The notes under the pieces: generated by a model
What the model saw: only the letters and a program-made list of their open reading frames with translations
The model's database searches: none
What the model was told of the DNA's origin: nothing
NCBI RefSeq assembly: GCF_054482525.1
Contig: NZ_CM137006.1
DNA: 64,000 nucleotides
Reading direction: 5' to 3' (one strand)
Shown: positions 5,753-42,178 of the stretch, one piece after another
How positions within the stretch are numbered: position 1 is the stretch's first letter
Layout: each line of letters begins with the position of its first letter
Translations under genes and position numbers: made by a program

Positions 5753-6292
5753 TTACTGATAGGTTAAAGAGAACCAGGCCTGGGCATTGGCGATGCCGCC
5801 AGTAACCCGACGCCCGGTAGCACGATATTTGGCGATGAAATGTAGCGAAGTAGAGCCTGAGTAAAGCCGTTTCCAGTTTGCAGGAGGACGATTAATCGGT
5901 ACGAGGTTTCCTTCATCATCAAACAACGCTACGCCAATATTGGCGGCTATCCCTGGCCCCTCTCCCACGGAAAGCACATCCGGATTTTTACCATCCGCGA
6001 CACCGTGAAACGCCACACCCACACGTTCACTCACCACCGTGCTACATTCCCGTAAATGAATAACAAAAGGCACCGGTGCGCTATCTTCCCCTACCGCATG
6101 AAACCGGTTACTGCTGATTTGCCCCATATTGACCGTCATTTGTTTATCACCGGCTTCAATCCGGCAAGTTTCCGCAATAATGACGCCCTGAAATTGCATA
6201 TTTCCGCCGGGCAGCGTGGTATTCCATTTATTTCCGGCCAGAGCAAACATTGGCAGTAACGACGCTAATAGAAATAATCTCTTCCTTTTCAT
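5753..6292 (-). CDS. fimI: Fimbrin-like protein FimI
   Basis: ORF 5753..6424 trimmed to [19 protein letters not shown]; pilin-like; between fimA and fimC. Confidence 0.85.
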
Positions 6293-14271: not shown

Positions 14272-16005
14272 ATGGAAATCATGTTACCAAAAAACACCTT
14301 ATATGACAGAGAGCAAAATGTCTTTTTTGAAAAGGTTACGGCCTTAATTGGCGAAAATGGTGCTGGTAAGTCCTCGATTTTACAATCCGTATTTATTAAC
14401 TGTTTAACAAAAAAATATCTACCAGAAACAAAGGTTGTTTGTTTTTCTTCTGGACAAAATGAGAAATACTCAACGTACTTCTCTGATTATCTTTCTCATG
14501 AAAGGCAAGCAAATAGAGGTCTTAACTTAGATTGTTGTTATTACGATAAATCATGGTCAAAGTTACTAATATTCATATCCACAATTTGTAAATCAAATGG
14601 TCTTGTTAGAAATTTTTTATGTGAGAAAGGCTATATTGATGTATCAGATGATAAAAATGATGATATATCAAGCAAGCTTACATTGACGGTCCGAGTAAAT
14701 TCGGCTTACGTTAATCGAGTAAAAATGGCATTAGCACAAGAAGAACAAGGTATTGAAAATACTTTAAGGTATTCAGCTTATCATAGGACTTTAGAAAGTT
14801 TCATTAATAATATTGTTAATGCTGATTATGATTTCGAGTCTCCACTTGAAGCTCAAGAGATCTTGCTAACTCATTCAAATTTTTTCAATCCATCATTTGA
14901 GGAAGCAGAAGATTCCTTTTTTGATCCTATCATAACATTTTTCACTCAAGCAGCAGATAATGATTACTTTATAATAAAACCATCATTACAGCTAGAGTTT
15001 AAAAATAATATCGAACTGAATGATATTAGTGATGGGGAATATCAAGTACTCTTTTTATACTCTCTGCTTGATATTTTTGATAGTCCTAATACTTTATTCT
15101 TATTAGATGAGATAGATTCCCATTTACATTACAAGAATATTGAGCTCTTATGGCATCGACTACATAGTATTAATGGTTATGCGATAACAACCACCCATCT
15201 ATTAGACTCAATTACAGCTACTGATAATGATTTTAAAAACTTAAAGATTGTTGATAAAGGAAAAATAAAAGAAGATGATAAAATAAAAACTATAATAGAA
15301 CGTTTATCTGTCTTGACAAGAATATCAGACGTACAGTTCGAAGTGTGTCGTAAACTAGAAAACATAGTATTGATGGATGATTATAATGATTGGACTATTT
15401 TTTATGCCTTAGCAAAGAAAAAAGGACTTGATGTATCAAAGTTAGATGGCCTCCATGCAATAAAACAGTCCTCTGGTTACGATAATTTAAATCAAGAGTT
15501 CGCAAAACCAAAAATAGAGTGGATTAATTCGCTTTCAAATGTAAATACTGATAAGAAAGTCAAAAAAATATTCATGATCTGCGACAAAGATGAGGCTCCA
15601 ATTACCTATCAGAAAGATGGAGTTCAAGTCAATGGAAGTGAATATTCAAAACATATAGCGAAGTTAGAAAATAAAAACAAAAATAAAATATATCTCCTTG
15701 CTTGGAAAAGAAGAGAAATAAAAAACTACTTATTATCTTATACGGCATTGTCTCATCATGGATTTATCGGGCAAATAAACAATGGTGATCTGCCGGCTAA
15801 CAGTTATTTAAAAGAAAACAATCCTGGAGATAATTCAGCAATTAGCCGGCTTAATGTAAAACATTGCATCACAAAAATAATTGATTCTGATGGTATAGGA
15901 TTAGATATCTCAAAACTTTACTCATATATAGAACTTATACCACCTGCTGAGATCAGTGAAGATATAGTGAACATGTACAATTTTTTGGTGGAGAAATTAA
16001 AATGA
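14272..16005 (+). CDS. OLD-family-like ABC ATPase (577 aa) with a possible C-terminal TOPRIM/DUF4435-like region; candidate restriction component
   Basis: Walker A GENGAGKSS, ABC signature-like ISDGEYQ, Walker B LFLLDEID, H-loop TTTHLL, C-terminal DxD-like ICDKDE; about 30% GC; stop overlaps the next start (ATGA). Confidence 0.7.
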   Translation: MEIMLPKNTLYDREQNVFFEKVTALIGENGAGKSSILQSVFINCLTKKYLPETKVVCFSSGQNEKYSTYFSDYLSHERQANRGLNLDCCYYDKSWSKLLIFISTICKSNGLVRNFLCEKGYIDVSDDKNDDISSKLTLTVRVNSAYVNRVKMALAQEEQGIENTLRYSAYHRTLESFINNIVNADYDFESPLEAQEILLTHSNFFNPSFEEAEDSFFDPIITFFTQAADNDYFIIKPSLQLEFKNNIELNDISDGEYQVLFLYSLLDIFDSPNTLFLLDEIDSHLHYKNIELLWHRLHSINGYAITTTHLLDSITATDNDFKNLKIVDKGKIKEDDKIKTIIERLSVLTRISDVQFEVCRKLENIVLMDDYNDWTIFYALAKKKGLDVSKLDGLHAIKQSSGYDNLNQEFAKPKIEWINSLSNVNTDKKVKKIFMICDKDEAPITYQKDGVQVNGSEYSKHIAKLENKNKNKIYLLAWKRREIKNYLLSYTALSHHGFIGQINNGDLPANSYLKENNPGDNSAISRLNVKHCITKIIDSDGIGLDISKLYSYIELIPPAEISEDIVNMYNFLVEKLK

Positions 16006-17909
16006 ACACCTCTTTATTTGAAGATCTACTTACACTAATCAAGAAAAAGAGTTCGATAAGAAATACAGAGCAAGCAGTAGAGTTAATTTCATTATTTATT
16101 TTTTTACATTATATAAAATTATATCTTTATGAAAATGATAAAAGATTTTCAGATATAAAAAACATATCAAGCAACAACATTAATGAAATTAAATATTATT
16201 ACCAGCAACTATATGAAAGTTTTATTTTCTCGATAGATATAAAAAATATAAACCACGACATGCTTGAAAACCTCAGGAGTAAGATAGGTTTTTTAATTAA
16301 TAACATCAATGACCATGAAATAATTAAATATATAGATTATTCTATTTCGCAGATACATTCACTTACAGAATTCCATCAATATGCAAATTCTTATCAATCT
16401 TTAATTCTTAGGATGGTTAATGAATCGGGTCGTTCAGGTGAATATGTTACTCCATCTGCTTTAGTTCAGCTCATGGTTGAAATGTTATCACCTACAGATG
16501 GCACATCAATCTACGACCCAGCATGTGGAACTGGGGGTTTATTAATAGAGTCAGCACGATATATTAAAGGCAACAGTTTAAACAAAAACTTAAATTTAAA
16601 TTATTCCCTTATTGGTAATGACACATCATCATTTGCCTGTCTAATCTCAATTGTTAACCTTTTAATCAATAAAGAATTTAATTTTGAAATAATACTAAAA
16701 GATAGCTTAGATATAAATTATAAGAATAAAAAATATGACTTTGTTTTAACTAACCCACCATTTGGGAAAAAGAGCTGTTGGGATAATATTCATATTGACA
16801 CACATTATAAAGGACCTAATCTAGACTATTACTTCCTGGAGCATGTTATTGACTCTCTCGCTGTTAATGGCAAAGCAGCCATGATATTACCAGAGCGTTT
16901 TTTATATGATGTGAGTGAAGAGTGCATCACTCTTAAAGATAAGATCTTCCAAAATTATAATTTAGATTGTATTTTATCTATACCGTCAGGTGCATTGCTT
17001 CCTTACACTGCAGTAAAATTATGTATTCTTTTTATAAGTAATTCTGGCCCAACAGATAGAATATTTTTCTACAATTTAAATAATGGTGAAAAATACTCAC
17101 GTACAAATATTATAAAATTCGATGATTTTATAGATTTTTTAGAGTCAGCAAAAAATAGAACAATAACTGAACACTCCTGGATTATCAATATTAGTGATAC
17201 ACCTTCATCTTATAACTTACTCTTAAAAGATAAAGAGCGAAACTCATATGAGTTTCTTAGTGATTCTATAGTTAACATTGAACAGACAATACGTAATAAT
17301 GAATTATTACTAACAGAGTTGTCTTTATTAAGAGAAAAAATAGCAATCTTAGAGTCAACAATAAAAAATCATTCGCATGAATATGAATTTGAGAGACTTA
17401 AAGTTGGAAATATTGCAATAGTAAAATCCGGAAATTTATTACAAAAAAACAGGCTGTTACCCACTGGACCAATTCCTGTATACGGTGGAAATGGAGTTAT
17501 TGGATATAATAATGAAGCAATGGAAAATGGTGAAAATATTATTATTGGTAAGGTCGGAGCTCTTTGCGGAAACGTTCGGTATGTTCAAGGTGATATTTGG
17601 GTGACAAATAACTCATTAATTATTAAGAATTATTCACCAAATAAAGTTTTAACACCCTACCTTGCAAAATTATTATCTACTTTAAACTTAAGAAGGCTCG
17701 CCGTTGGTACCGCTCAGCAATATTTAACCACGACACAAATAAAAAATGTAGAAGTTAGTATTCCACCTTTAACGACCCAGTATAAATTAAATATTTGGCT
17801 TGATGAGTTAGATAATACGCTTGAACAATATAATAATCTCATTGAAAAAATAATGAATGATAAGCGAGAACTTAAAGAGAATTTGTATAAAGGTCTTTTA
17901 ATAGAATAG
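16002..17909 (+). CDS. Gamma-class N6-adenine DNA methyltransferase fused to an HsdS-like target-recognition domain (635 aa)
   Basis: Motif I DPACGTGGLL followed by motif IV NPPFG; C-terminal region resembles type I specificity-subunit TRDs; AT-rich; coupled to the upstream ATPase. Confidence 0.75.
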   Translation: MNTSLFEDLLTLIKKKSSIRNTEQAVELISLFIFLHYIKLYLYENDKRFSDIKNISSNNINEIKYYYQQLYESFIFSIDIKNINHDMLENLRSKIGFLINNINDHEIIKYIDYSISQIHSLTEFHQYANSYQSLILRMVNESGRSGEYVTPSALVQLMVEMLSPTDGTSIYDPACGTGGLLIESARYIKGNSLNKNLNLNYSLIGNDTSSFACLISIVNLLINKEFNFEIILKDSLDINYKNKKYDFVLTNPPFGKKSCWDNIHIDTHYKGPNLDYYFLEHVIDSLAVNGKAAMILPERFLYDVSEECITLKDKIFQNYNLDCILSIPSGALLPYTAVKLCILFISNSGPTDRIFFYNLNNGEKYSRTNIIKFDDFIDFLESAKNRTITEHSWIINISDTPSSYNLLLKDKERNSYEFLSDSIVNIEQTIRNNELLLTELSLLREKIAILESTIKNHSHEYEFERLKVGNIAIVKSGNLLQKNRLLPTGPIPVYGGNGVIGYNNEAMENGENIIIGKVGALCGNVRYVQGDIWVTNNSLIIKNYSPNKVLTPYLAKLLSTLNLRRLAVGTAQQYLTTTQIKNVEVSIPPLTTQYKLNIWLDELDNTLEQYNNLIEKIMNDKRELKENLYKGLLIE

Positions 17910-21070: not shown

Positions 21071-22241
21071 TCATAGCTTGGCGCAGTTGAATAATTTTCC
21101 CCAAGGATTCATTGTGCCTATAAATATTCTCATACGAACACTTAAACGTATTAATGATTGATGCTTGAATATCGAAGGGAGGAATAGGAATTTGAATTTT
21201 TAAAAAGTTATCTTTATTTATTTTCTTCATACTTCCGCTAGTTCCAGCAGCAATACCTTGAATAGCTCGACGGCCATATGGAGACATCAGATAGTACATT
21301 AAAAACTCTTTTTTAATAAATTTTTCGTCAACAGCCAATCTCCACATCGTGTCTGGGAAAATCGTATTCCCATTGCCAGTCGATCCTTTATATTTTCCAA
21401 CTAAACCAACCAACTCCGCTGTATTAGAACGAGAGATTAACAAATCACCATCATTGCATGTTTTTCCTTTTAAAAAATGATCTTCTGTAATATTTTTTAA
21501 AGTAGTTTCTCTGAATCCTGATTTCGACAAACTATTTAGGTTCAGGACATAGTACCCAGTCCCGACTGCGGTTTCAACAGGAGAATATCCCCCTTCTGGA
21601 GAATCAATTAAAACATCTTTAATAGAACCAAAAGTCCATCCAACCGGAAGAGGAACACATTTATTCTCCCTCGAATCAAAGTAGTTATCAAAAGTCCGTA
21701 GACCAATAGCATATAATAATCTTTTAGCTGCTTTGAGAGCACTTAAATATAGAAGTTCTTTCTTTGCTAACGAATCAAAGATTATTAATGACGAGTATTG
21801 CTGTTCAATGCTCGGTATATTAACTTCTAGTTTATTTAAATCACTCCATTTTATTCGCGATGATAGCGAGCCGGCGGAATTTGCAATCACCTTTTCCATA
21901 AAAGAGGTTGATTGCATCAAGTGGGGTAAGTACCCATCCAATAAGTAGTTGTTTTTCCTTGGTTTAATTACCATTGCATCAGCAGAGCAAATACCATTAA
22001 TAGGGCTCACCGACACCCTTTTTAAATATGTATTTCGTCTACTAAAAATTATTTCGCCACACTTTACCTTAAAGGCTTGTGTTTTCAATTCAACGTCAGC
22101 CCCCCAATCATGAACATAAAAATAACCAGATTTCAAATGTTCCAACCCAATAAAATGCTTAGCATCGTCGCTTGTTGGGGAGATTCTAACCATAACCTGT
22201 TCAGCAAGATCACCAAATGTAACATTTCTTTTATTATTCAT
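21054..22241 (-). CDS. hsdS: Type I restriction-modification specificity subunit HsdS (start uncertain; ORF extends to 22292)
   Basis: About 400 aa, consistent with a two-TRD specificity subunit; lies between hsdM and hsdR with overlapping ends. Confidence 0.8.
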   Translation of the reverse strand: MNNKRNVTFGDLAEQVMVRISPTSDDAKHFIGLEHLKSGYFYVHDWGADVELKTQAFKVKCGEIIFSRRNTYLKRVSVSPINGICSADAMVIKPRKNNYLLDGYLPHLMQSTSFMEKVIANSAGSLSSRIKWSDLNKLEVNIPSIEQQYSSLIIFDSLAKKELLYLSALKAAKRLLYAIGLRTFDNYFDSRENKCVPLPVGWTFGSIKDVLIDSPEGGYSPVETAVGTGYYVLNLNSLSKSGFRETTLKNITEDHFLKGKTCNDGDLLISRSNTAELVGLVGKYKGSTGNGNTIFPDTMWRLAVDEKFIKKEFLMYYLMSPYGRRAIQGIAAGTSGSMKKINKDNFLKIQIPIPPFDIQASIINTFKCSYENIYRHNESLGKIIQLRQAMIDKEI

Positions 22242-23739
22242 TATTATATTTCTCTCTATCAATTTCATAGCCAATGCTATCCAAGCTATCAAACAATACC
22301 TTGATATTTCTTTTGAGTTTTACGCTACTGACTTTCCATGATTCGATAGCATGCTGAATATCATTCATTTTGACATTGTTTTGAGATTTCACATAAAGTG
22401 AAATCGATAAATTATAGAAATTTTCTTTAATAGCTTCGATATCCACTAAAGCGGTTATGTCGTTTTTTTTCTCCGGATTAAAATAAGCCTCGCATAATAC
22501 TTCCAAATCATCATCAGATAGGCGACTATGGGCACGTTCACGGGTAACATACTCAACCCCGTTGATAAACAAAACCTTATTTTTGCGTTCAGCAGGTTTA
22601 TTGCAATTAAGCACCACCAAGCAAGATTCCATCGGCGAGTTGTAAAACAGATTTGGTCCCAAACCAATCACCGCTTCGATTATGTCGGATTCAATCACCT
22701 GTTTACGAATGGCTTGTTCAGAATCACGGAACAGTACACCATGCGGCCAGAGCATGGCAGCACGACCGGTGTCGGGTTTTAAACTTTTGATTATATGGGT
22801 ATAAAACGCATAATCAGCACAACCTTGTGGAGGCACGCCATAGAGATTACGCCCATAGGGATCGGCTGCAAACTTGTCACGATTCCATTTCTTAATGGAG
22901 TATGGTGGGTTAGCAAAAATCACATCAAACTGCTTGAGCCGATCGTTTTCAATAAACTTTGGCTCAGCCAAAGTATCACCACGCAGCACATCAAACTCTT
23001 CAATATCATGCAGGAACATATTCATACGAGCAATAGCGGAAGTCAGCAGGTTCACTTCCTGACCATAAAGGTGCACAGAGCGCCACTCTTCTCCTCTTGC
23101 ACGAAGATCCATCACTGCATTTAGCAACATCCCTCCAGTGCCACACGTTGGATCATAGGCTGTTTCACCCGGTTTTAAGCCCATAATGCGCGTCATTAAA
23201 TGCACGACTGTTCGGTTGGTGTAGAACTCTGCTGCCGTATGACCGGAATCATCAGCGAACTTTTTAATCAGGTATTCGTAGGCCTCACCAAGATCATCCT
23301 GAGCGACAGATTTAATACCGAGCGGTATTTTACTGAAATGTTCAATCAGATCAGCCAGCAGATGATCGGGCAGGCGCTCTTTATTGGTCCACTGCGCATC
23401 ACCGAAGACGCCATGTAAACGCGGATTATTGGCTTCAATTAGTCGAAGCGCATTCTGGATCGCTTCACCAATGTTTTTACTGGTATTGCGTACCTTTTCC
23501 CAACTGGCTTCAGAGGGAATATTGAAACGGTGAAACATCGGCATGGCGGCATATTCAGCATCACCTTCATGGAGTTCCAGCGCTTCGTTATATTCTTCCA
23601 GATAGACATCTGACAGGCGTTTGTAAAACAGCAACGGGAAGATATACTGCTTGTAGTCTGATGCGTCAATTTGGCCACGAAGAAATTCGGCGGCTCCCCA
23701 GAGCAGCTCTTCCAGCTTTTTATTACTCATAGTACTCAT
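22234..23739 (-). CDS. hsdM: Type I R-M methyltransferase subunit HsdM (copy 1, 501 aa)
   Basis: Motifs DPTCGTGGML and ANPPYS; HsdM-like N-terminal domain. Confidence 0.9.
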   Translation of the reverse strand: MSTMSNKKLEELLWGAAEFLRGQIDASDYKQYIFPLLFYKRLSDVYLEEYNEALELHEGDAEYAAMPMFHRFNIPSEASWEKVRNTSKNIGEAIQNALRLIEANNPRLHGVFGDAQWTNKERLPDHLLADLIEHFSKIPLGIKSVAQDDLGEAYEYLIKKFADDSGHTAAEFYTNRTVVHLMTRIMGLKPGETAYDPTCGTGGMLLNAVMDLRARGEEWRSVHLYGQEVNLLTSAIARMNMFLHDIEEFDVLRGDTLAEPKFIENDRLKQFDVIFANPPYSIKKWNRDKFAADPYGRNLYGVPPQGCADYAFYTHIIKSLKPDTGRAAMLWPHGVLFRDSEQAIRKQVIESDIIEAVIGLGPNLFYNSPMESCLVVLNCNKPAERKNKVLFINGVEYVTRERAHSRLSDDDLEVLCEAYFNPEKKNDITALVDIEAIKENFYNLSISLYVKSQNNVKMNDIQHAIESWKVSSVKLKRNIKVLFDSLDSIGYEIDREKYNNE

Positions 23740-25235
23740 ACCTCGAACCCTTCTTTGATAAGCAGGGCCTCCAGCTCCTCTTCTGCTTTTTCCAGCTCAG
23801 CCAGCTTCCGTTGAAAATCTTTGAGCGCCTCTTCCACAGTGATGGTTTCTTCTTCGAGTGGCTTTTGCACATAACGAGCAATATTTAGATTGAAGTCATT
23901 TTCTTCAATCTCCTTCAGAGGAACCCAGCGTGCAACGCCTTCGATTTCTTTTGCATCTGGCCCTTGTTGCGCCTGGTCATGATAGATTTGGTATATTTCA
24001 TCGGCCTGCTTGTTGGACAGCGTATTCTGCGCACGTCCCTTGGTATAGATTTCTTCAGCATTGATGATCAATACATGATCTTTATGCGCGGCCGGACGTG
24101 ATTTACGCAGCACCAAAATACACGCAGGAATCCCAGTTCCATAGAACAGGTTGGAAGCAACACCAATAATCGCCACAATGCGATTCTCTTGCAGTAATTT
24201 GGTTCGAATTGCCCCCTCTGCGCCGCCACGAAACAGCACACCATGAGGTAATACGACTGCCATACGTCCATTGTCGTTAAGTGAAGCAAACATATGCTGC
24301 ACCCAGGCAAAATCACCATTTGTTTTAGGCGCCAGGCCATATTGCTTACGGCCATAGGGATCGTTCGACCACAGATCGTATCCCCATTCTTTTAAGCTAA
24401 ACGGTGGGTTGGCAACAACGCAGTCAAAGGTTTCTAAACGATCGCTTTTTAAAAATTTAGGTTCGCGTAAAGTATCCCCTCGGACAATATCGAAATCTTC
24501 CTGTCCATGCAGGAACAGATTCATACGCGCAATAGCTTCCGTCGTTAAGTTCTTTTCCTGACCCTTGATTTTTAGTAAACGCGGATCACCACCATTTTCT
24601 TTTACATGGTGGATGGTCTCAAGCAGCATACCACCGGTACCACAGGCGGGATCGTAGACACTCTCACCGGCTTTTGGATCAAGAATGTTAACCATCAAAC
24701 GAACGATAGTTCGTGGGGTATAGAACTCACCTGCTTTCTTATTGGCTTTGTCTGCAAAGCGTTTGATCAGATACTCGTATGCGCGCCCCATATCATCGTC
24801 ACGGACACTAGAAACGCCAAGGTTCACCTTATTGAAGTGATTGAGTAACGTAGCCAGTAACTCATCAGAAAGGCGTTCTTTATTGGTCCAGCTGGCATCG
24901 CCAAAAATGCCATGCAGTTTAGGGTTTGCCAGTTCTATACCACGGAAGGACTCTTTTAAAGCCTGACCGATGTCCTTGGTCTCAGCGAAAACATCGCGCC
25001 AGTGGCAATTTTCAGGTATCTGAATACGGTGAAACATCTTGCCCTTGGCAAGCTCTGCATCCCCAACGCTCTCCATCGCATCAGCAAATTCTTCGTCATA
25101 CACGTCACAAATGCGCTTGAAGAACAAGATGGGGAAAATGTACGTTTTGTAATCTGACGCATCAATGGGCCCTGTAATAATATGGGCTGCATGCCATAGA
25201 TGGGCCTCGAGATCTTTTAGGTTAATCAGTGTCAT
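23736..25235 (-). CDS. Second, divergent HsdM-like N6-adenine methyltransferase (copy 2; extended ORF reaches 25337)
   Basis: Motifs DPACGTGGML and ANPPFS; about half of residues identical to copy 1 by eye; ATGA overlap with copy 1. Confidence 0.85.
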   Translation of the reverse strand: MTLINLKDLEAHLWHAAHIITGPIDASDYKTYIFPILFFKRICDVYDEEFADAMESVGDAELAKGKMFHRIQIPENCHWRDVFAETKDIGQALKESFRGIELANPKLHGIFGDASWTNKERLSDELLATLLNHFNKVNLGVSSVRDDDMGRAYEYLIKRFADKANKKAGEFYTPRTIVRLMVNILDPKAGESVYDPACGTGGMLLETIHHVKENGGDPRLLKIKGQEKNLTTEAIARMNLFLHGQEDFDIVRGDTLREPKFLKSDRLETFDCVVANPPFSLKEWGYDLWSNDPYGRKQYGLAPKTNGDFAWVQHMFASLNDNGRMAVVLPHGVLFRGGAEGAIRTKLLQENRIVAIIGVASNLFYGTGIPACILVLRKSRPAAHKDHVLIINAEEIYTKGRAQNTLSNKQADEIYQIYHDQAQQGPDAKEIEGVARWVPLKEIEENDFNLNIARYVQKPLEEETITVEEALKDFQRKLAELEKAEEELEALLIKEGFEV

Positions 25236-25478
25236 TGTTGTCTCTTTTCGATCCTGCAGTGCTTGAACTCTCAGCAACTCATGGATTTCACAGTAAAAAA
25301 GCAAGCAAAGCGATTCCACAACCACCTGAGCGTTCAATACGTATGACGCCTTTACCCAAGTTGCTTAAATCAAGGAAATTGCCAGAGATAATACTCTGGC
25401 ATCAGAATGATACCAAGTTGAAGGGCTGATTTCCGCATCAATACCTTGTGGTAATAGGGGATTACTCTTTTACCCTTA

Positions 25479-26046
25479 TTGGCGCAAAATGGCGGCATTT
25501 ACTCATTTCTCCATCGGAGCATCTTACGCGCTATAACCACTCTCGTTTTTTCCTATTCCCATGCAGATGAAGCACTACGCAATGAACTTGAGAAGCATCT
25601 CTCCCCGCTGAAGCGAACCGGGAAGATCACAACATGGCACGATCGCCGCATCGTTCCTGGTCAGGAGTTCGAACGTCAGATCGACCACTATTTTTCGCAA
25701 GCAGATATCATCCTGATCCTGATCCTGATCCTGATCAGCAGTGACTTTATTGCTTCTGATTACTGCTATCAGGTAGAGATGAAAAACGCACTGGAACGGC
25801 ATGACCGGGGCGAGGCGGTGGTCATTCCGGTAATTTTAAGAAACTGTGCATGGCATCAGTTATAATTCGGCAGCATTATGGCGGCGACTATCGACGGTAA
25901 ACCCATCACTAAGTTTGCCACCCACGATGAAGGCTACGTTCAGGTCGTCGAGGCCGTCTCGCGTGCCATTGCCCGGATGGAAGCCAAAAAACTACAGCAA
26001 ACCATACATATCCCTTCACCGGCTCCGGCGAATCCGATCTTTTAGG
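25479..26046 (+). pseudogene. TIR-domain gene interrupted by an in-frame TAA stop at 25863-25865; the same frame continues to TAG at 26044-26046
   Basis: TIR-like signature ...VFSYSHADEAL...SSDFIASDYCYQVEM...VIPVILRNCAW, then stop, then ...FGSIMAATIDGKPITKF... in the same frame. Confidence 0.6.
25710..25733. repeat. (ATCCTG)4 hexanucleotide repeat inside the TIR gene, encoding an ILILILIL tract
   Basis: Read directly from the sequence. Confidence 0.9.
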
Positions 26047-26445
26047 GAGTAGATTCCGTTTTTACACCGCGTTCAAGCAACCTTACTCTATCTGTTATAG
26101 CCAGGATAATGTTGTTCGAAACAGTATTAACGAAATTGTAAGCCTTGCTGATAACGGCCAGACTCTTGGTTTTCGTGCTCTGATGGGAGGCTTCAGTCGT
26201 GGAACTTCACGAGACGAACTATTGACCAATGAAGGTATGTCGGAACATCTCTGGGAAATGTTCTTCGGGCTAATCAAGCAAAGAATGTCCCGATAATTTG
26301 CCATATCACAGTCGGGCATACTGCCCGATTTTTGTGCTGTCATTATTGGCAATATCTCAATAGGCGTTGAGAAATGGTGCAATTTAATCTTGCCAGAGCG
26401 CTGTTACTTGGGGACGAAATGAATGGGCTCCTGCTGTAGTTACAG

Positions 26446-26480: not shown

Positions 26481-27476
26481 TCATGCAGGCAAATACGTTT
26501 TCTTAAGCGGCACCAACAGCTTAGTTTCAATATCCACCTGCTCATAGTTTTCCACTAACGCGCGTACCAAATCGTCCAGCGTCCATAGCGTCAACGGGAT
26601 TGTAGAACGATCGGCCTCATAACGCGCATCCTTGCTGAATCCGCCGGTACTAACATACAGCCCGCGATCGTCTTTATGACGGCCACCGATAAAGCTACGG
26701 ATTTGCTGGCTGCTCATCTGTTCCCGCCGGTGCTTCACCTCAACAATAATGCGCGGATTTTCAAACCCAAATCCGTCAGGCGAAGCAATGATGTCTTTCC
26801 CACGGTCAGCACCCGCAGGCGATACCTGAGTTTTATATCCCATGCTGCGTAACACGCCAGCGACCAGATTCTGCATCTCATCCCAGTCGAGACGGTTGAT
26901 ACGATCCTTGATGCCTTCAAAAGCGATCATTTCCATGTCGCGCAGAGGATTAGAAACGACCTCATCCTCTTCACCTGAAACAGGTACTTCCGGCACGATA
27001 TCTGAGACAGGCTTATTGCCCTGCACTAATTCATTCACAGCAAAATCAGGCACCTGAAAAACTGTCAGCGTTGAACCAAGGGTGTTTCTGGTTGCATCAC
27101 TCAGACTATCGCGCTTAATCTCTTCCGCATTCCACTTCACTTTACGGGCGATGCCCATGCCATCTTCAAGCCACTCGGCATGAAACTCAAAATCTGACGC
27201 TATTTTCCCTATTAAATAGGTCCGATTAGAAGGTGAATAAGTGATAGCCCAGTCGCCTTTCTGCATTTCATTCACAAAGCGCCAGACCTGAGAAGCTCCA
27301 GAACGAACTGTGCCTGGCTTAGTCTGTGGCTCAAGCTCCTGATACCGGGTAAACAACTGCTCTCTTGAGCATCCAGGTTTCACATAGGGAGCGAGCTGCG
27401 ACCAACCAATTGCAACAACCTGTTTGTCTCTGAAGTCGTCGTACAATTTTCCGCCATCACCGCGGATCATCCACAT
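26481..27476 (-). CDS. Mrr-like (type IV-like) restriction endonuclease with an uncharacterised N-terminal domain
   Basis: C-terminal PD-(D/E)xK-type signature ...GKDIIA...RIIVEVKHRR...QQIRSFIG typical of Mrr catalytic domains; start chosen at MWMIRGDGG (ORF extends to 27644). Confidence 0.65.
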   Translation of the reverse strand: MWMIRGDGGKLYDDFRDKQVVAIGWSQLAPYVKPGCSREQLFTRYQELEPQTKPGTVRSGASQVWRFVNEMQKGDWAITYSPSNRTYLIGKIASDFEFHAEWLEDGMGIARKVKWNAEEIKRDSLSDATRNTLGSTLTVFQVPDFAVNELVQGNKPVSDIVPEVPVSGEEDEVVSNPLRDMEMIAFEGIKDRINRLDWDEMQNLVAGVLRSMGYKTQVSPAGADRGKDIIASPDGFGFENPRIIVEVKHRREQMSSQQIRSFIGGRHKDDRGLYVSTGGFSKDARYEADRSTIPLTLWTLDDLVRALVENYEQVDIETKLLVPLKKTYLPA

Positions 27477-27597: not shown

Positions 27598-30500
27598 CTA
27601 AACCTGACGCCTCTCAAGACTATTATAAATAGCCTCAATTTCACCTTTCAGGTTATCACCAGAGTAAACCATCGATGTATCGTATCGTTCATATCGCGCT
27701 TCCCGTGTCGCACTAAACCAGTTGAACGATCCCACGCATAGCAAACCATCATCACCAATAACAATTTTGCTATGAACACGGTTTACCAGCTTTGTAGCAA
27801 TACCCAGCGCATTCAGTTTCTCCAGCGCCGCTTTAAGGTTCTGCTGCTTCTCTTTTCGCTTCTCAAAATCTTTATGTTCAGTGTTGTAGCTTCTGTCAGT
27901 GACTATCGTGACGTTAATACCACGTGAACACGCCGCAATCATGGAATCAAGAAAACCCGTTTGCTCCAGCTTTTGCCAGGTCAGCCATGGAGAAACTATC
28001 GTGATGTGTTTATCGGTATTTTCAAACGTCTGATTCAGGAAATTATCATGCTGCTCCACACCATGGAGTGTGTAGATTTTGGTCTCGGAAGTTTTTAAAT
28101 CCTTACGCTCTTTATAATCAAAAGAGAGCGCATTCTTCTCGGACTCAAAGAGATATTTTGCCAGTAATCCCCGCGGAGATGAGGGAGGCTGGATCTCAAA
28201 CAGATCCATATCGCCGAAGACCAGGAAGCTATCCTTCGCACGGGAGACTGCAACATTCAGCATGCTGTTATCGCTATCAATAAACCCGCCATCTTCATGT
28301 TTTGAATAGACTGGCGAGAATATAACAATCGCTCTTTCCGCTCCCTGAAGAGAGTGCACGGTGCCCACGGTGAGCGACTTTTCATTCGCGCCCGTACTGA
28401 TACCTTGTTTACCCAGCGCCTGTTTGATAGTGGATACCTGCGCGCTAAAAGGCGTCACGATACCGACAACTTCATGAAGCGATTTGCCGTAATGCGCTTC
28501 AATATTTTGCTGGTTCTCTGCCAACCAGGCCGCTATCGTTTCAGCCTCAAGCAAATTATATCTACTTCCACTACTTGCCAGCTCTCCTTTACCATCAATA
28601 TGGAGATAACCCATTGCGGGCATTAAATTGCTCTCTTCGCGCCCTCTTTTAGGCAACAACTTACCGTGATAGCAGAGCGTATTACAGTATCCAATAATAT
28701 TATCGAAGCACCGGCGGTGTTCATATAGGTACATACCACGAGCCAGTTCGGGATCATATTGATAGCGCGAAGCAAACTGCGCTATTTTCATAACGCTGCC
28801 AGATGCGGCACTTTTACCAAGGTCTGCGATTGCCGTATATTTCTCGGTAATCTCTTCTTGCGTACTGCCAGACAGAATTTTTTCCGCAAGCATGTTACCG
28901 ACATCAATCGCGGGAGCAATACTCCATATTGGCGGGATCTGCTCCGTATCGCCAATCACTAATGCCTTCTTAGCTAATGCAAACGAGGCAGCAGCCACTT
29001 CAGGAAGCACCTGCCCGGCTTCATCGACAATGAGTAAATCGGCAAAATCATACAAATAACTTTTCTCGAATTTACGTTGTCCTTTGTGCTCACTTATCTG
29101 CATATTGCCGGGCAGCATATAGCATGTCATCACCACACATGGAGTGAGTTTCATTCGACGTTGCCAACGGGCGGTTACCCCTTTAGCGCCTTTTTTCTTC
29201 TTCTCTTCCTGCAGATCATCAATTCTGGCCATATCCATCAGCCAACGACCTTCCCAGTAGTGAGTCGTCAGTAAAAATGCAGGGAAGCGAATCTGCGTAT
29301 CAGCCAGTTCATCGGCCTGTGAGAAGCTCAGTTCCTCGTCGCCCTCATACCCTAAATCAAATGCCAGCCTCTGCCACTCCTGAACCGCCTGCTGTTCTTT
29401 AAGAACGATTTCATGGGCGGAGTCAATCTGCTGCCGGTATGTTGTTTGCTCGCGCTCAGCGGAATTGAGCAGCCCATCAATATTACGTTCGATAGTTTCA
29501 GGATCAGACCACTGATTTCCTGCAATCAGCGCGCCTAATTTATCTTCGAGAAACAACTGTATTTGGTACTGTCGCTTACTACGAACCGCTGGGAGCCAGG
29601 AAAATAATGAATAGATCAGTGATTCACCGGCGCGATATTTTTTCCATTCCGTTTTAGCACTCTTCAGTAGAGTGACTTTTTGTTCTTGTCCGGAAAGTAA
29701 TTTATTTAAATTATCGAGATATTGCTCAATGTCGTTAGCAATAAGCTCACGCGCAGCCCGTACCTGGCTTAACGTTTGCCATGTTGCGTTCAGTCTTATC
29801 AGTTGCTCGGATTTTGCTGCCAACTGACCATGCAGGAGTTCAATGACCTTTTCAGGGGATGAACACTCTTTTTCAGGAAAAGCTGCCTTAGCTTTCTCGA
29901 GATAAAACAGCAGTGCATCCTCTACATACTCTTTTGACTCAACCTGGTTGAAGAAATCTTCAGTTTGATATTTTTTGGCTGCCTCAGCTTTACGAGTGCT
30001 TGAGGGAAAATAAGCGCCGAAGCTTTTCAGCTCTGGCAACCATCGTCCGGCCATCGCACCTGAACCTTGCGAAAAGTCTTTCCCGAATGCCTCAATAATG
30101 TTCGTTACAGCCTGGTTATTCGTTGAAGTCGCGATAATAACCGGAGGCTCAGATTTTTCGAGAGCTGCTCTGGCCCACTGCGTGGCGATGATAGAAAGCA
30201 CCAGCGTGGTTTTTCCGGTTCCCGGAGGTCCATTAACAGCAAGGATATCGCCATGTCTTGCATCCAGAAAATGGCTTAAGGCATCGCGCTGAGCCTTTGC
30301 CAGCGGAAACTTATCTCCGGAGTGTCCAAGCCTGTCGCTGAATTTTGCTCCTGGAGCCAGCAAAGACTCTGCAGCATGAACCTCTCGCGAGGCGAAGCGA
30401 TTGAAGAGCGGCACATCCTTCTTGCAAACAAGCAGGTGATCATAAAGAGAAAGGATATGGAAACTGGCACCGCCAGATTGCGCCGTTTTAACAATATAAC

Positions 30501-31113
30501 CGTGCTCAGCGAGTTCATATTGCTCAGGATTTTTAATCCAGTCGCCGGCAACGTTCTTCAGCAGCCTCTCTGAATCATCCAGATATTGATGCCACTCCTG
30601 CTGCAAGGCTGCATATCGTGCTTCCCGTTCTTCATCCGTTTCGGCAGTCTTATCAATGCTGTCATCAAAGTTGATAGAGAACGAGGTATGGATTGTCTTG
30701 TATTTGTCATACTGCCCAATCTCACCAATCGAAAATGCTCCTTTTGGCAAAGGTTCAAGCAGGTCTCTGGGAATGGAGGTCGCTGGCGTCGGATATAAAA
30801 AACCCTCACGGCTGAGCAAGGCTGGCGTCACTAGCGGGGTAACAATATCAGGTGCGCCTGCGGAACGGTCCTTACCATGCTGCAGTAACCGAAAATAAAC
30901 TTTTGGGCGCAAGACGACATCGACCGTTTCGACATCGTCTTTTTCTCCCTCAAAAAATTTACTGACAATCGCTTCGTCAAGACGTCCCGCCGCTATCCCA
31001 TGCCAGTGAGTGAAATTTTTGGCGTCTTTCCGTTCAAAACTGCCCTTTCCTGACTCAGCATCCGCAAGCGAGTTGCGCCAGTATGAGGCAAACCCTAAAG
31101 CATTTTCATCCAT
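27598..31113 (-). CDS. Upf1-like SF1 helicase fused to a C-terminal phospholipase-D-family nuclease (1171 aa; Mokosh type II-like)
   Basis: Walker [11 protein letters not shown], Walker [21 protein letters not shown] and [16 protein letters not shown] helicase motifs; C-terminal HxK(x)4D motif [19 protein letters not shown]. Confidence 0.7.
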
Positions 31114-31438: not shown

Positions 31439-31816
31439 CTATCGTTTTGTCCGATGCTTGCGAATAAAAGCATTCAAAATGTCGCCTTCACCATGCATGA
31501 CAGAAAAAGAATATTCACATTCTTTCTTTATCAAGATTCCACATAATTCCTTGTGCAAATCAACATTAACTCCCTTTCCTTTCTGCGCTTTCTTCACACC
31601 GAGCTCACATGAACTGATTAATTCAACGGTACAGGGTTTCTTCAGATAATTCACACCATCAATTAAGCCCTGGAGAATGCATCTATTTGCGGTCGTATCA
31701 CTGTAGGAGAAAGTCAGATATTTTATTTTTCCTTCGTATTCCAACACAACCTCCGCCGAACCTTCACGTGTTGCAGCATCACAACCTCCTGTTGAATATA
31801 TTTTTACCATCTTCAT
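31439..31816 (-). CDS. Small hypothetical protein (125 aa) with weak RNase HI-like resemblance; the usual catalytic acidic residues look substituted
   Basis: By-eye similarity of VKIYSTGGC / TANRCILQG to RNase HI VEIFTDGSC / TNNRMEL; speculative. Confidence 0.3.
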   Translation of the reverse strand: MKMVKIYSTGGCDAATREGSAEVVLEYEGKIKYLTFSYSDTTANRCILQGLIDGVNYLKKPCTVELISSCELGVKKAQKGKGVNVDLHKELCGILIKKECEYSFSVMHGEGDILNAFIRKHRTKR

Positions 31817-31884: not shown

Positions 31885-32664
31885 TTATCTCAGTAAATTC
31901 TTCCGATGCCACTCCAGATAACAATACGATTCAACAGAAAACGCCTTTATTTTCTCCGGCAACAAACATTGCTCTTTAACGCTAATATCCAGCGCCTTAC
32001 TAATTAATAAATGCCCATCGTTCTCAAACGAAATCCATCCCTGATCGAATAGAATATCAATATGCGCAGCCAATATAATTCCATTAAAAGGATCAAGCCG
32101 TTCATTCCCATTCTCGCAGGCAGCCCACGGCTTTATATGGCTGGTACGCAGTAAAGGTGCAAACGTCGTTCCCGTAACAGGACATGCCGGATACAACATA
32201 AGACAATTTTTCCGAAAGGTACCTTGCCCCAGCCGTGCCGCAATCAGCTGCTCGCGTACGGTATCTTCAATACTTTTATCCTGCTGAATAGCAAGACAGT
32301 CACGTTGTGCCTGTTCATCTCCAGCAGAAGATATTAACGAAAGAACGCGCTGCTCAATCGCACTGTCTGAAAGCACACTCATTCGCTGATACACACGCTG
32401 CGCTGAATGAGAAAGCGCAGCAGGAGCGCCCTGCTCGTCAAGCCAGCCGACACGCACATCACTAAGCCAGGAATCAAAACGGTCACGACTATTTTTCAGA
32501 CTATTGTGAAACTCGCTGGCAGTTTTGCCCGCTCCAAATCGAGGATAAAACAAGGCAAAAGCCTCTTTCCATTTCTGAACACCCAGTCCTGCGGGTGGTT
32601 GAGATTTTCCGTACTTCGACAAATACCACGCCACTTCAAGCAAATCGTCTTCAGAGCTATTCAA
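31885..32664 (-). CDS. HNH-motif endonuclease-like protein (259 aa)
   Basis: C-terminal CPVTG...SHIKPW...NG..L...H..FD.GWISF pattern characteristic of HNH nucleases. Confidence 0.5.
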   Translation of the reverse strand: MNSSEDDLLEVAWYLSKYGKSQPPAGLGVQKWKEAFALFYPRFGAGKTASEFHNSLKNSRDRFDSWLSDVRVGWLDEQGAPAALSHSAQRVYQRMSVLSDSAIEQRVLSLISSAGDEQAQRDCLAIQQDKSIEDTVREQLIAARLGQGTFRKNCLMLYPACPVTGTTFAPLLRTSHIKPWAACENGNERLDPFNGIILAAHIDILFDQGWISFENDGHLLISKALDISVKEQCLLPEKIKAFSVESYCYLEWHRKNLLR

Positions 32665-33003: not shown

Positions 33004-33088
33004 TGGTGCCGAAGGCCGGACTCGAACCGGCACGTATTTCTACGGTTGATTTTGAATCAACTGCGTCTACCGATTTCGCCACTTCGGC
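33004..33088 (-). tRNA. leuX: tRNA-Leu (anticodon CAA), leuX
   Basis: Reverse complement reads GCCGAAGTGGCGAAATCGGTAGACGCAGTTGATTCAAAATCAACCGTAGAAATACGTGCCGGTTCGAGTCCGGCCTTCGGCACCA, 85 nt with CAA anticodon loop and CCA end. Confidence 0.95.
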
Positions 33089-41095: not shown

Positions 41096-42178
41096 TTACG
41101 ATTTTCTCATTAACAGCCACAGGCTGATTAAGAAGAAGCTGGCGCTTGGCAACAGTGCGCCAATGATCGGCGGGATGCCATAAACCAACGTCAGCGGGCC
41201 GAAGATCTGGTCCAGTACGTAGAAAACAAAACCGAAGCTGATACCGGTGACCACACGCACGCCCATCGGTACGCTACGCAGTGGGCCAAAGATGAACGAC
41301 AGCGCCATCAACATCATCACCGCCACGGATAGCGGCTGGAAGATTTTGCTCCACATGTTGAGCTGATAACGTCCGGCATCCTGACCGCTCGACTTCAGAT
41401 ACTTCACATAGTTGTGCAAACCACTGATGGAGAGTGCATCCGGGTCCAGCGCCACCACGCCCAGTTTGTCTGGCGTGAGGTTGGTTTTCCAGGTGCCGCT
41501 CACCGTCTGCGAACCGGTGATCTGTTTCGGATTGGTCAAATCAGATTCATCAACCTGCGACAGACGCCAGACTTTATGTTCCGGGTCAAACTTCGCGGTA
41601 GCGGCATAACGTACGGATTGCAGACGACGATTCTCGTTAAAGGCATAAATACTGATGCCACCTAACTCCTCGTCACCTTTAACCCGCTCAATGTAGACGA
41701 AGTTGTTGCCATCTTTCGCCCATAAGCCTTGCTGGGTAGAGAGCAACGAGCCGCCGTACATCGCCTGCGCACGGTAGTTACGCGCCATCTGTTCGCCCTG
41801 CGGCGCGACCCATTCGCCAATCGCCATCGTCAGCAAGACCAGCGGAATGGCGGTTTTCATCACCGACAGCGCAACCTGCATACGGGTAAAACCAGAAGCC
41901 TGCATCACCACCAGTTCGCTGCGCTGCGCCAGCATCCCAAGACCAAGCAACGCCCCAAGCAGAGCCGCCATCGGGAAGAAGATTTGCACATCTTTCGGCA
42001 CGCTCAGCAAGGTATACATTCCTGCGCCTAACGCGTCGTAACTCCCCTGCCCGGCTTTTTTCAGCTGATCGACAAACTTGATAATGCCCGACAGCGACAC
42101 CAGCATGAACAGCGTCATCATGATGGTGGTGAAAATAGTTTTACCGATATAGCGGTCAAGTACGCCAAAAGGTTGCAT
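41096..42178 (-). CDS. lptG: LPS export ABC transporter permease LptG
   Basis: 360 aa starting MQPFGVLDRYIGK; synteny with lptF. Confidence 0.92.
   Translation of the reverse strand: MQPFGVLDRYIGKTIFTTIMMTLFMLVSLSGIIKFVDQLKKAGQGSYDALGAGMYTLLSVPKDVQIFFPMAALLGALLGLGMLAQRSELVVMQASGFTRMQVALSVMKTAIPLVLLTMAIGEWVAPQGEQMARNYRAQAMYGGSLLSTQQGLWAKDGNNFVYIERVKGDEELGGISIYAFNENRRLQSVRYAATAKFDPEHKVWRLSQVDESDLTNPKQITGSQTVSGTWKTNLTPDKLGVVALDPDALSISGLHNYVKYLKSSGQDAGRYQLNMWSKIFQPLSVAVMMLMALSFIFGPLRSVPMGVRVVTGISFGFVFYVLDQIFGPLTLVYGIPPIIGALLPSASFFLISLWLLMRKS

Follow-up and report, generated by a model that had tools for sequence, protein, structure and literature searches.

A Putative Decayed SDIC1-Type TIR Gene in a Defense Island of Escherichia coli

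Gene Content of the Locus

The window (the whole stretch of DNA analyzed, 64,000 nucleotides) contains a disrupted TIR-domain gene located between a type I restriction-modification (R-M) operon and a gene for a restriction endonuclease with an Mrr catalytic domain. The leuX tRNA-Leu(CAA) gene (33004-33088, - strand) forms the edge of this defense island, and lptG and lptF are found at 41096-43278, as in the lptG-side defense hotspot. The features of the locus are the following:

23736-25235, - strand: second of two tandem type I R-M hsdM genes, divergent from the TIR gene (annotation, PADLOC)
25236-25532, no strand assigned: intergenic region separating the divergent hsdM and TIR genes, in which 25379-25408 (+) gives a weak sigma-70-like match
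25479-25532, + strand: upstream in-frame extension starting at a TTG, its frame broken by a 1-nt indel in Salmonella, Enterobacter, and Klebsiella
25533-26296, + strand: putative SDIC1A-type TIR-Y4lF pseudogene, ancestrally 327 aa (PGAP annotation, alignment to AR_0077 WP_024179470.1, family alignment)
25533-25535, + strand: ATA at the position of the family ATG start (G>A at 25535; comparison across genera)
25710-25733, + strand: (ATCCTG)4, a 12-bp in-frame tandem duplication of (ATCCTG)2 (TRF)
25863-25865, + strand: nonsense codon TAA (GAA, Glu107, in relatives), inside the conserved TIR motif CAWHQL(E/P)FG
26043-26045, + strand: a further nonsense codon, TAG in place of the CAG (Gln) of relatives, within the linker between the two domains (DNA alignment)
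26088-26089, + strand: junction of a frameshifting 232-bp deletion with 2-bp TA microhomology, which removed the first part of the Y4lF domain and is found in ~39 other E. coli genomes, EcPF15 among them
26090-26296, + strand: last 68 ancestral codons (C-terminal part of Y4lF), out of frame with the TIR part, ending in the ancestral TAA at 26294-26296
26310-26340, + strand: terminator-like hairpin and T-run between the SDIC1A stop and the SDIC1B start, kept in Salmonella (L031, ~6000-6030)
26374-26439, + strand: SDIC1B stub, MVQFNLARALLLGDEMNG (18 homologous codons, 26374-26427) followed by LLL*, with the 336-bp deletion junction at 26427/26428
26481-27470, - strand: restriction endonuclease with an Mrr catalytic domain, matching the PADLOC candidate PDC-S02, convergent with the SDIC1 remnant
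27598-31113, - strand: Mokosh type II MkoC (helicase and PLD nuclease, 1171 aa; PADLOC MkoC, E 0, full length)

An open reading frame (ORF) of 128 codons extends from a TTG at 25479 to a TAA at 25863-25865 (span 25479-25865), in agreement with the in-frame stop reported in a preliminary description of this DNA. That description had set the limits of the gene at 25479-26046; alignments with relatives place the family start at 25533 and carry the gene to 26296. Its statement that the frame continues for about 60 codons past the TAA stands (59 codons), but the TAG at 26043-26045 that closes this stretch is a second nonsense codon and not a natural end. The segment between the TTG and the family start is probably a 5' untranslated region and not coding, as comparison with relatives suggests. 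The TTG is missing or altered in Salmonella, Enterobacter, and Klebsiella, a C>A change at 25501 within this segment is lineage-specific, and the PADLOC ThsB1 profile begins at residue 20 of the TTG-extended protein. A GGAG lies ~13 nt upstream of 25533, and a promoter scan of the hsdM-TIR intergenic region gave no result above chance.

The segment is 100% identical in two complete E. coli genomes, PCN033, isolated from a pig, and 19KM1776, isolated from a dog in Switzerland. In both, RefSeq flags the gene as a pseudogene (PPECC33_RS29570 and AACG32_RS11160, 'TIR domain-containing protein; frameshifted; internal stop'). By BLAST, the window shows 8 mismatches over 32.6 kb to PCN033 and 1 mismatch over 13.1 kb to 19KM1776, and its genome is a third member of the PCN033/19KM1776 clone, distinct from both. 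Since all lesions are common to these three assemblies, a sequencing error is excluded for practical purposes; an artifact of sequencing or assembly at 25863 or at the repeat, a general possibility with nothing specific in its favor, has a negligible probability.

Domain Architecture of the TIR Protein

The preliminary description had recognized a TIR gene, and the intact allele bears this out, with a match to Pfam TIR_2 (i-E 9e-14), a full-length match to PADLOC ThsB1, and TIR domains as structural neighbors of its AF2 model. All of the best PDB matches of this model (Foldseek) are TIR domains, including that of MAL/TIRAP (5UZB), the top structural match outside plant TIRs, which agrees with the available text of the SDIC1 preprint (bioRxiv 10.1101/2024.01.28.577318). 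The model, with a pLDDT of 88.9 overall and of 89.5 for the C-terminal domain, predicts an architecture consisting of an N-terminal TIR domain, a disordered linker, and a C-terminal Y4lF domain (Pfam PF27176) formed by a long helix, an antiparallel sheet, and a C-terminal helix. Intact proteins are 327 aa long in E. coli and Salmonella and 323 aa in Serratia. The family has the TIR fold with a conserved glutamate after the beta-C strand. This residue, E78, does not vary among 29 close sequences, and its conservation in a wider family of 64 sequences is 90% or more; it aligns with the SDWCWDELE motif of Cat1 in a PDB sequence search, and its codon is kept in the window. The same search returned TIR domains only (Cat1, 7UXR) and no match for the C-terminal domain, and NCBIfam gave no real match for the TIR protein or for SDIC1B.

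In every case the Y4lF domain occupies the C-terminus, fused to varied partners, which suggests a portable module that is not part of the TIR fold. Its other fusions include a CHAT protease, GGDEF, DUF2513, and a CAP12/Pycsar-type TIR (e.g., P0137, L023 1208-2860), and it can also be encoded by a gene of its own that overlaps one for a 147-aa TIR protein. A literature search found no publication mentioning 'Y4lF'. Genes for TIR-Y4lF proteins are often located beside or within R-M and BREX loci. Distant homologues lie within three BREX loci (L024 7001-7975, L021 713-1690, and L022 7001-7990): the first sits between pglX and pglZ, the second immediately 5' of a gene encoding a product similar to the N-terminus of the L024 PglZ, and the third adjoins brxR. 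As these three loci have no SDIC1B-like gene, the family also occurs as a single gene embedded in DNA-modification defense systems.

The Partner Gene and Probable Assignment to SDIC1

SDIC1 (Serratia Defence Island Candidate 1) was described in a 2024 preprint as a pair of genes, SDIC1A and SDIC1B (bioRxiv 10.1101/2024.01.28.577318). [quoted passage not shown] SDIC1A alone was reported to protect against phages while impairing growth, both domains being needed; the protein self-associates and binds SDIC1B, which relieves its toxicity. Removal of the C-terminal part abolished toxicity, in a truncation that also cut into the TIR fold. Protection was ascribed to an abortive-infection or population-level mechanism with membrane depolarization, and the same parts of the preprint report no significant drop in NAD+ (10.1101/2024.01.28.577318).

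The identification of the present family with SDIC1 rests on primers, length, domain layout, and gene order. Primers in Table S29 of the preprint encode the SDIC1A peptides MATLVF..., ...EAIVIPV/ILRNCAW..., and ...SIKQRMT*, and the SDIC1B peptides MVQLNL... and ...EKFCSER* (10.1101/2024.01.28.577318). These peptides match family members P0112 and P0105 as well as the gene pair of E. coli XJ23PTE1, which encodes a 323-aa TIR protein and a 107-aa protein (MVQLNL...QEKLCSDR*). Over their full length, P0105 and P0112 are 64-65% identical to the 327-aa protein of E. coli. By homology, the ancestral gene of the window encoded an SDIC1A-type protein (TIR plus Y4lF, ~323 aa), the copy in the window being disrupted.

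Gene order was compared across genera. In the Salmonella island, the genes are arranged as in the window (hsdR-S-M-M, a TIR gene of 327 aa, a 102-aa gene, an Mrr-type endonuclease, and MkoC), and its TIR gene has an ATG start and a complete SDIC1B downstream. The homologues of Enterobacter and Klebsiella are followed by a 102-106-aa MxQLNL protein. Full-length SDIC1B (102-107 aa) is found in Salmonella, Enterobacter, Klebsiella, and 7 E. coli genomes. The gene had been described as solitary, which does not hold for the family, as this partner adjoins it on the 3' side in Salmonella, Enterobacter, Klebsiella, and some E. coli; in the window, no intact SDIC1B is found directly downstream, and the 336-bp deletion has left 18 codons. 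The hairpin between the two genes is kept in Salmonella together with an intact SDIC1B, and could attenuate SDIC1B relative to SDIC1A, or SDIC1B could have its own promoter.

The ancestral gene thus resembles SDIC1 in its N-terminal TIR and C-terminal domain of unknown function (323-327 aa), in its small downstream MVQLNL partner, and in its location at a hotspot that has lptG as one boundary (lptG-yjiA in Serratia). There are two differences: the copy in the window is non-functional (ATA, 12-bp insertion, two stops, 232-bp deletion, and 18-codon SDIC1B), and identity between the E. coli/Salmonella allele and the SDIC1A-like subgroup amounts to only ~65%. From these sequence comparisons, we estimate a probability of about 80% that the locus is a multiply inactivated TIR gene of the two-gene SDIC1 anti-phage system.

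Lesions in the Putative SDIC1A Gene

Lesions were called from a three-way DNA alignment of the window, the intact AR_0077 allele (327 aa, WP_024179470.1), and the deletion-type EcPF15 allele, and from an alignment to the Salmonella island copy, which has an ATG start and a full SDIC1B. The start codon is ATG in Salmonella, Serratia, Enterobacter, and Klebsiella and ATA in AR_0077, EcPF15, E700025, and PCN033/window, that is, in four of the four allele classes read among E. coli of the SDIC1B-less type. The comparison with intact homologues called for in the preliminary description confirmed both the stop position and the repeat number as deviations from relatives: the aligned intact and deletion-type alleles have GAA at the position of 25863 and two repeat copies. 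The TAA accordingly arose by a nonsense substitution (GAA>TAA), as had been proposed. In the family alignment and the AF2 model, this stop at family residue 107 removes F108-G109...D117-G118-K119 and the helix 127-148, and beta-C strand carries four extra residues, which leaves the encoded product with an incomplete TIR fold. Beyond the 232-bp deletion, the translation of 26090-26296 (ICYSQDNVVRNS...LIKQRMSR*) matches the family C-terminus in the family alignment. The window therefore has neither a canonical start nor an uninterrupted SDIC1A frame (ATA, +12 bp, TAA, TAG, and the 232-bp frameshifting deletion).

These lesions bear on the proposal that one nonsense substitution recently interrupted an otherwise intact, solitary TIR gene that could still give a working 128-aa product or be rescued by read-through. 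The change from GAA to TAA is indeed a single base and is followed by 59 more open codons, but at least five further lesions are present when the loss of the partner is counted, the start codon being ATA. Moreover, read-through would meet the second stop at 26043 and then the frameshift, and the product ends inside the CAWHQL|FG motif, ahead of the last conserved TIR elements. A single nonsense event of this kind is consequently very improbable. The broader statement that the gene is inactivated agrees with the multiple lesions and with the PGAP pseudogene flags. The 128-codon ORF would be expected to yield nothing functional, with the last part of the TIR fold missing and four residues added to a core strand.

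The Hexanucleotide Repeat

The ATCCTG array is perfect over 4.5 copies (25710-25736, TRF score 54) and is the top-scoring short-period repeat of the 64-kb window, exceeded by one array of 15.9 copies of an 18-bp unit. TRF supports the four perfect copies inside the TIR domain reported at 25710-25733, and the suggestion that the repeat grew in frame was correct, from two to four copies against the aligned relatives. The expansion inserts LILI in the TIR strand beta-C (residues 59-64 form a strand in the AF2 model), and the four-residue insertion is present in none of 27 homologues in the family alignment of 29 sequences. The two-copy repeat was itself made by the substitution L62I (CTC>ATC relative to Salmonella), and one 12-bp duplication is enough to explain the step from (ATCCTG)2 to (ATCCTG)4.

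The preliminary description left room for a gene that is truncated and variable, and asked for the copy number across related isolates. Among 106 complete E. coli genomes with the locus, four copies were matched in PCN033 and 19KM1776 only, and the alleles among the records listed below them are all 12 bp shorter. As an allele of three or five copies would rank above these 12-bp-shorter records, its absence among the matches listed argues against a variable tract: in the records listed there are solely two-copy and four-copy states, the latter limited to the PCN033 clone, and the census gave no sign of phase variation at the repeat. A contingency tract, phase- or length-variable and tuning the TIR protein, would fit a perfect tandem repeat within a coding region. 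Against it stand the two observed states, the sufficiency of a single duplication of a repeat that originated by one substitution, and the confinement of the expansion to an allele already broken; furthermore, a repeat whose unit is in frame cannot switch expression. We consider a contingency role highly implausible. On the reverse strand, the repeat falls within a 75-aa ORF (25575-25802, - strand) with a DQDQDQDQDD tract, a mirror image with no support as a gene.

Comparison with Thoeris and Other TIR Systems

The intact protein matches the PADLOC ThsB1 profile at E 2e-153 over positions 2-317 of 319, and would be classified by this profile as the TIR-domain ThsB of Thoeris. The preliminary description had noted that a ThsA-like partner is absent, and this was confirmed: no ThsA-like gene (SIR2-SLOG or Macro/TM) is found near the gene in the window or in the annotated neighborhoods of PCN033 (64-kb) and 19KM1776, nor beside the homologues examined in E. 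coli, Salmonella, Enterobacter, Klebsiella, Serratia, and metagenomes. The SIR2_2 genes near homologues belong to a SIR2-HerA pair or lie inside an hsd operon. Since ThsA is absent in every context examined, membership in Thoeris was rejected.

An orphan ThsB that signals to a distant ThsA would still account for the end-to-end profile match and for the TIR_2 domain with its conserved glutamate. However, the sole recurring partner of the family is SDIC1B, the family has an additional C-terminal Y4lF domain, and its characterized relative works without a separate effector, SDIC1A being sufficient for defense according to the available text of the preprint (10.1101/2024.01.28.577318). The copy in the window is in any case dead, and a role as orphan ThsB appears most unlikely. 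Another point of comparison is provided by the systems TIR-I to TIR-IX of Wang et al. 2024 (Nat Commun, PMC11350192), which are likewise single- or two-gene TIR systems in defense islands of the E. coli chromosome. The family described here is probably a cluster of ~100 members among the 64 clusters of that study. In contrast to the N-terminal TIR domain found here, TIR-V and TIR-IX appear, from the available part of that source, to share a C-terminal region (PMC11350192).

Allele Census and Proposed Decay History

The census covered 5,426 complete E. coli genomes, of which 106-108 carry the locus. The full-length ORF allele, with ATA, was found in 50 genomes, a 1-bp frameshift (C4>C3) in the C-terminal domain in 8, and the 232-bp deletion in ~41; both stops together with four repeat copies occur in two (PCN033 and 19KM1776), to which the window is added. 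With SDIC1B as the query region, its first 57 nt alone matched in 100 genomes, which carry the stub, and the complete, divergent SDIC1 pair is present in 7 (for example, XJ23PTE1). In about half of the ~100 SDIC1B-less alleles, the C-terminal domain is broken, through two independent lesions, in a clade that diverges by ~2% or less.

The lesions common to different alleles suggest an order of events. An SDIC1 pair would have resided between the type I R-M operon and the Mrr-like endonuclease, in the island bounded by leuX and a few kb from lptG. The ancestor of ~100 sequenced E. coli would then have undergone the 336-bp deletion in SDIC1B and the change of the SDIC1A start to ATA, both present in all four allele classes. 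The C-terminal domain was apparently broken twice independently afterwards, by the 1-bp deletion (8 genomes) and by the 232-bp deletion (~41 genomes). Finally, the PCN033 clone would have acquired, in a gene already broken, the two stops and the 12-bp duplication of the repeat made by L62I.

With the safety provided by SDIC1B lost, SDIC1A may have become a liability, so that its silencing was favored. We infer this from one E. coli lineage, from the toxicity that the available text of the preprint reports upon over-expression (10.1101/2024.01.28.577318), and from the copies that accompany SDIC1B, since every examined copy with an intact SDIC1B is itself intact and has an ATG start. The allele series of E. 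coli (partner lost, start weakened, independent knock-outs) fits the toxicity reported there for SDIC1A without SDIC1B. A more ambitious reading would regard these alleles as a natural experiment, in which the loss of SDIC1B left SDIC1A self-toxic, its expression was then lowered (ATG>ATA, found in all carriers), and several independent knock-outs followed; we advance it tentatively and consider it rather doubtful. If true, population genetics would supply evidence for SDIC1B as an essential restraint acting in cis and for the active purging of immune effectors once they are orphaned. In the PCN033 clone, both of the clone-specific substitutions in the ORF are nonsense, while 3.6% of possible substitutions give stops (P ~0.0013, post hoc), which under the same reading would hint that a free-standing TIR domain without Y4lF is still costly.

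Neutral decay alone would have a dispensable defense gene drifting, with the SDIC1B deletion, the ATA, and the later lesions as unrelated accidents. Defense genes are frequently lost, the full-length ORF is kept in 50 genomes, and all events fall within one shallow lineage. In addition, removal of the C-terminal part abolishes toxicity in the available text of the preprint (10.1101/2024.01.28.577318), so selection need not be invoked for the later hits: anything acquired after the 232-bp deletion would be expected to be neutral, and the two nonsense changes out of two then lack an explanation. The truncation used there also cut into the TIR fold and thus does not settle the cost of a complete free TIR domain. 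Neutral drift sits less easily with repeated independent inactivation (start codon, 1-bp frameshift, 232-bp deletion, two stops, and duplication) in a clade of ~2% divergence or less, with the two nonsense substitutions of the PCN033 clone, and with the intact, ATG-started state of the copies examined that retain SDIC1B. Drift as the full account is possible, although we would not expect it. The proposed sequence of partner loss and silencing resembles that of an orphaned toxin of a toxin-antitoxin-like pair, in which the neutralizing partner is lost first and the toxic partner is then attenuated and inactivated by independent hits. It differs in that SDIC1B is not known to be a classical antitoxin, and in that the reported toxicity, in the available text of the preprint, comes from plasmid expression of the Serratia homologue.

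The feature is an ordinary pseudogene of a described defense family, already flagged by automatic annotation. Returning to the reading as a decayed SDIC1 locus, the gain lies in corrections: the gene now spans 25533-26296, its lesions are listed in full, a stub of SDIC1B is recognized, and 'decayed SDIC1' replaces the label 'solitary TIR / ThsB-like'. The locus would best be annotated as a dead SDIC1A gene with an SDIC1B stub, neither as a possibly active solitary truncated TIR gene nor as a component of Thoeris, and a PADLOC-style ThsB hit to a member of this family is better read as SDIC1A. The E. coli alleles could serve as natural mutants for studying the restraint of the SDIC1 TIR system, and their stepwise decay once the partner was gone is of modest evolutionary interest.

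Other Observations in the Island

The two tandem hsdM genes (22234-23739 and 23736-25235, - strand) overlap, encode ~500 aa each, and belong to one hsdR-S-M-M operon; the doubled arrangement is also found in the Salmonella island (L031). Elsewhere, inserted genes are found in hsd operons neighboring SDIC1A homologues, namely SIR2_2 in Klebsiella and DUF4268 in Enterobacter. Upstream in the window, an overlapping pair on the + strand (14272-16005 and 16002-17909) encodes an AAA ATPase with weak AriA/PtuA/GajA-like matches and a 635-aa methyltransferase with a fused type I specificity (S) domain, and may represent an unclassified defense or R-M-like module. At the leuX-proximal end, the genes for an HNH endonuclease (PADLOC HNH model, E 7e-20) and for a 125-aa protein without a family match adjoin each other (31439-31816 and 31885-32664, - strand), and this gene pair is kept in all E. 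coli loci fetched. Collinearity with PCN033 and 19KM1776 ends at ~33027, inside the leuX tRNA gene, where these two genomes have a further CP4-like element (CbtA/CbeA, antirestriction, RadC, and others) that the genome of the window does not carry. The strongest tandem array in the window by far is the 18-bp repeat CCTGAGAATTATTTAACT (15.9 copies, 90% matches, 53150-53435), which lies within the span of a 623-aa ORF (52119-53990, - strand).
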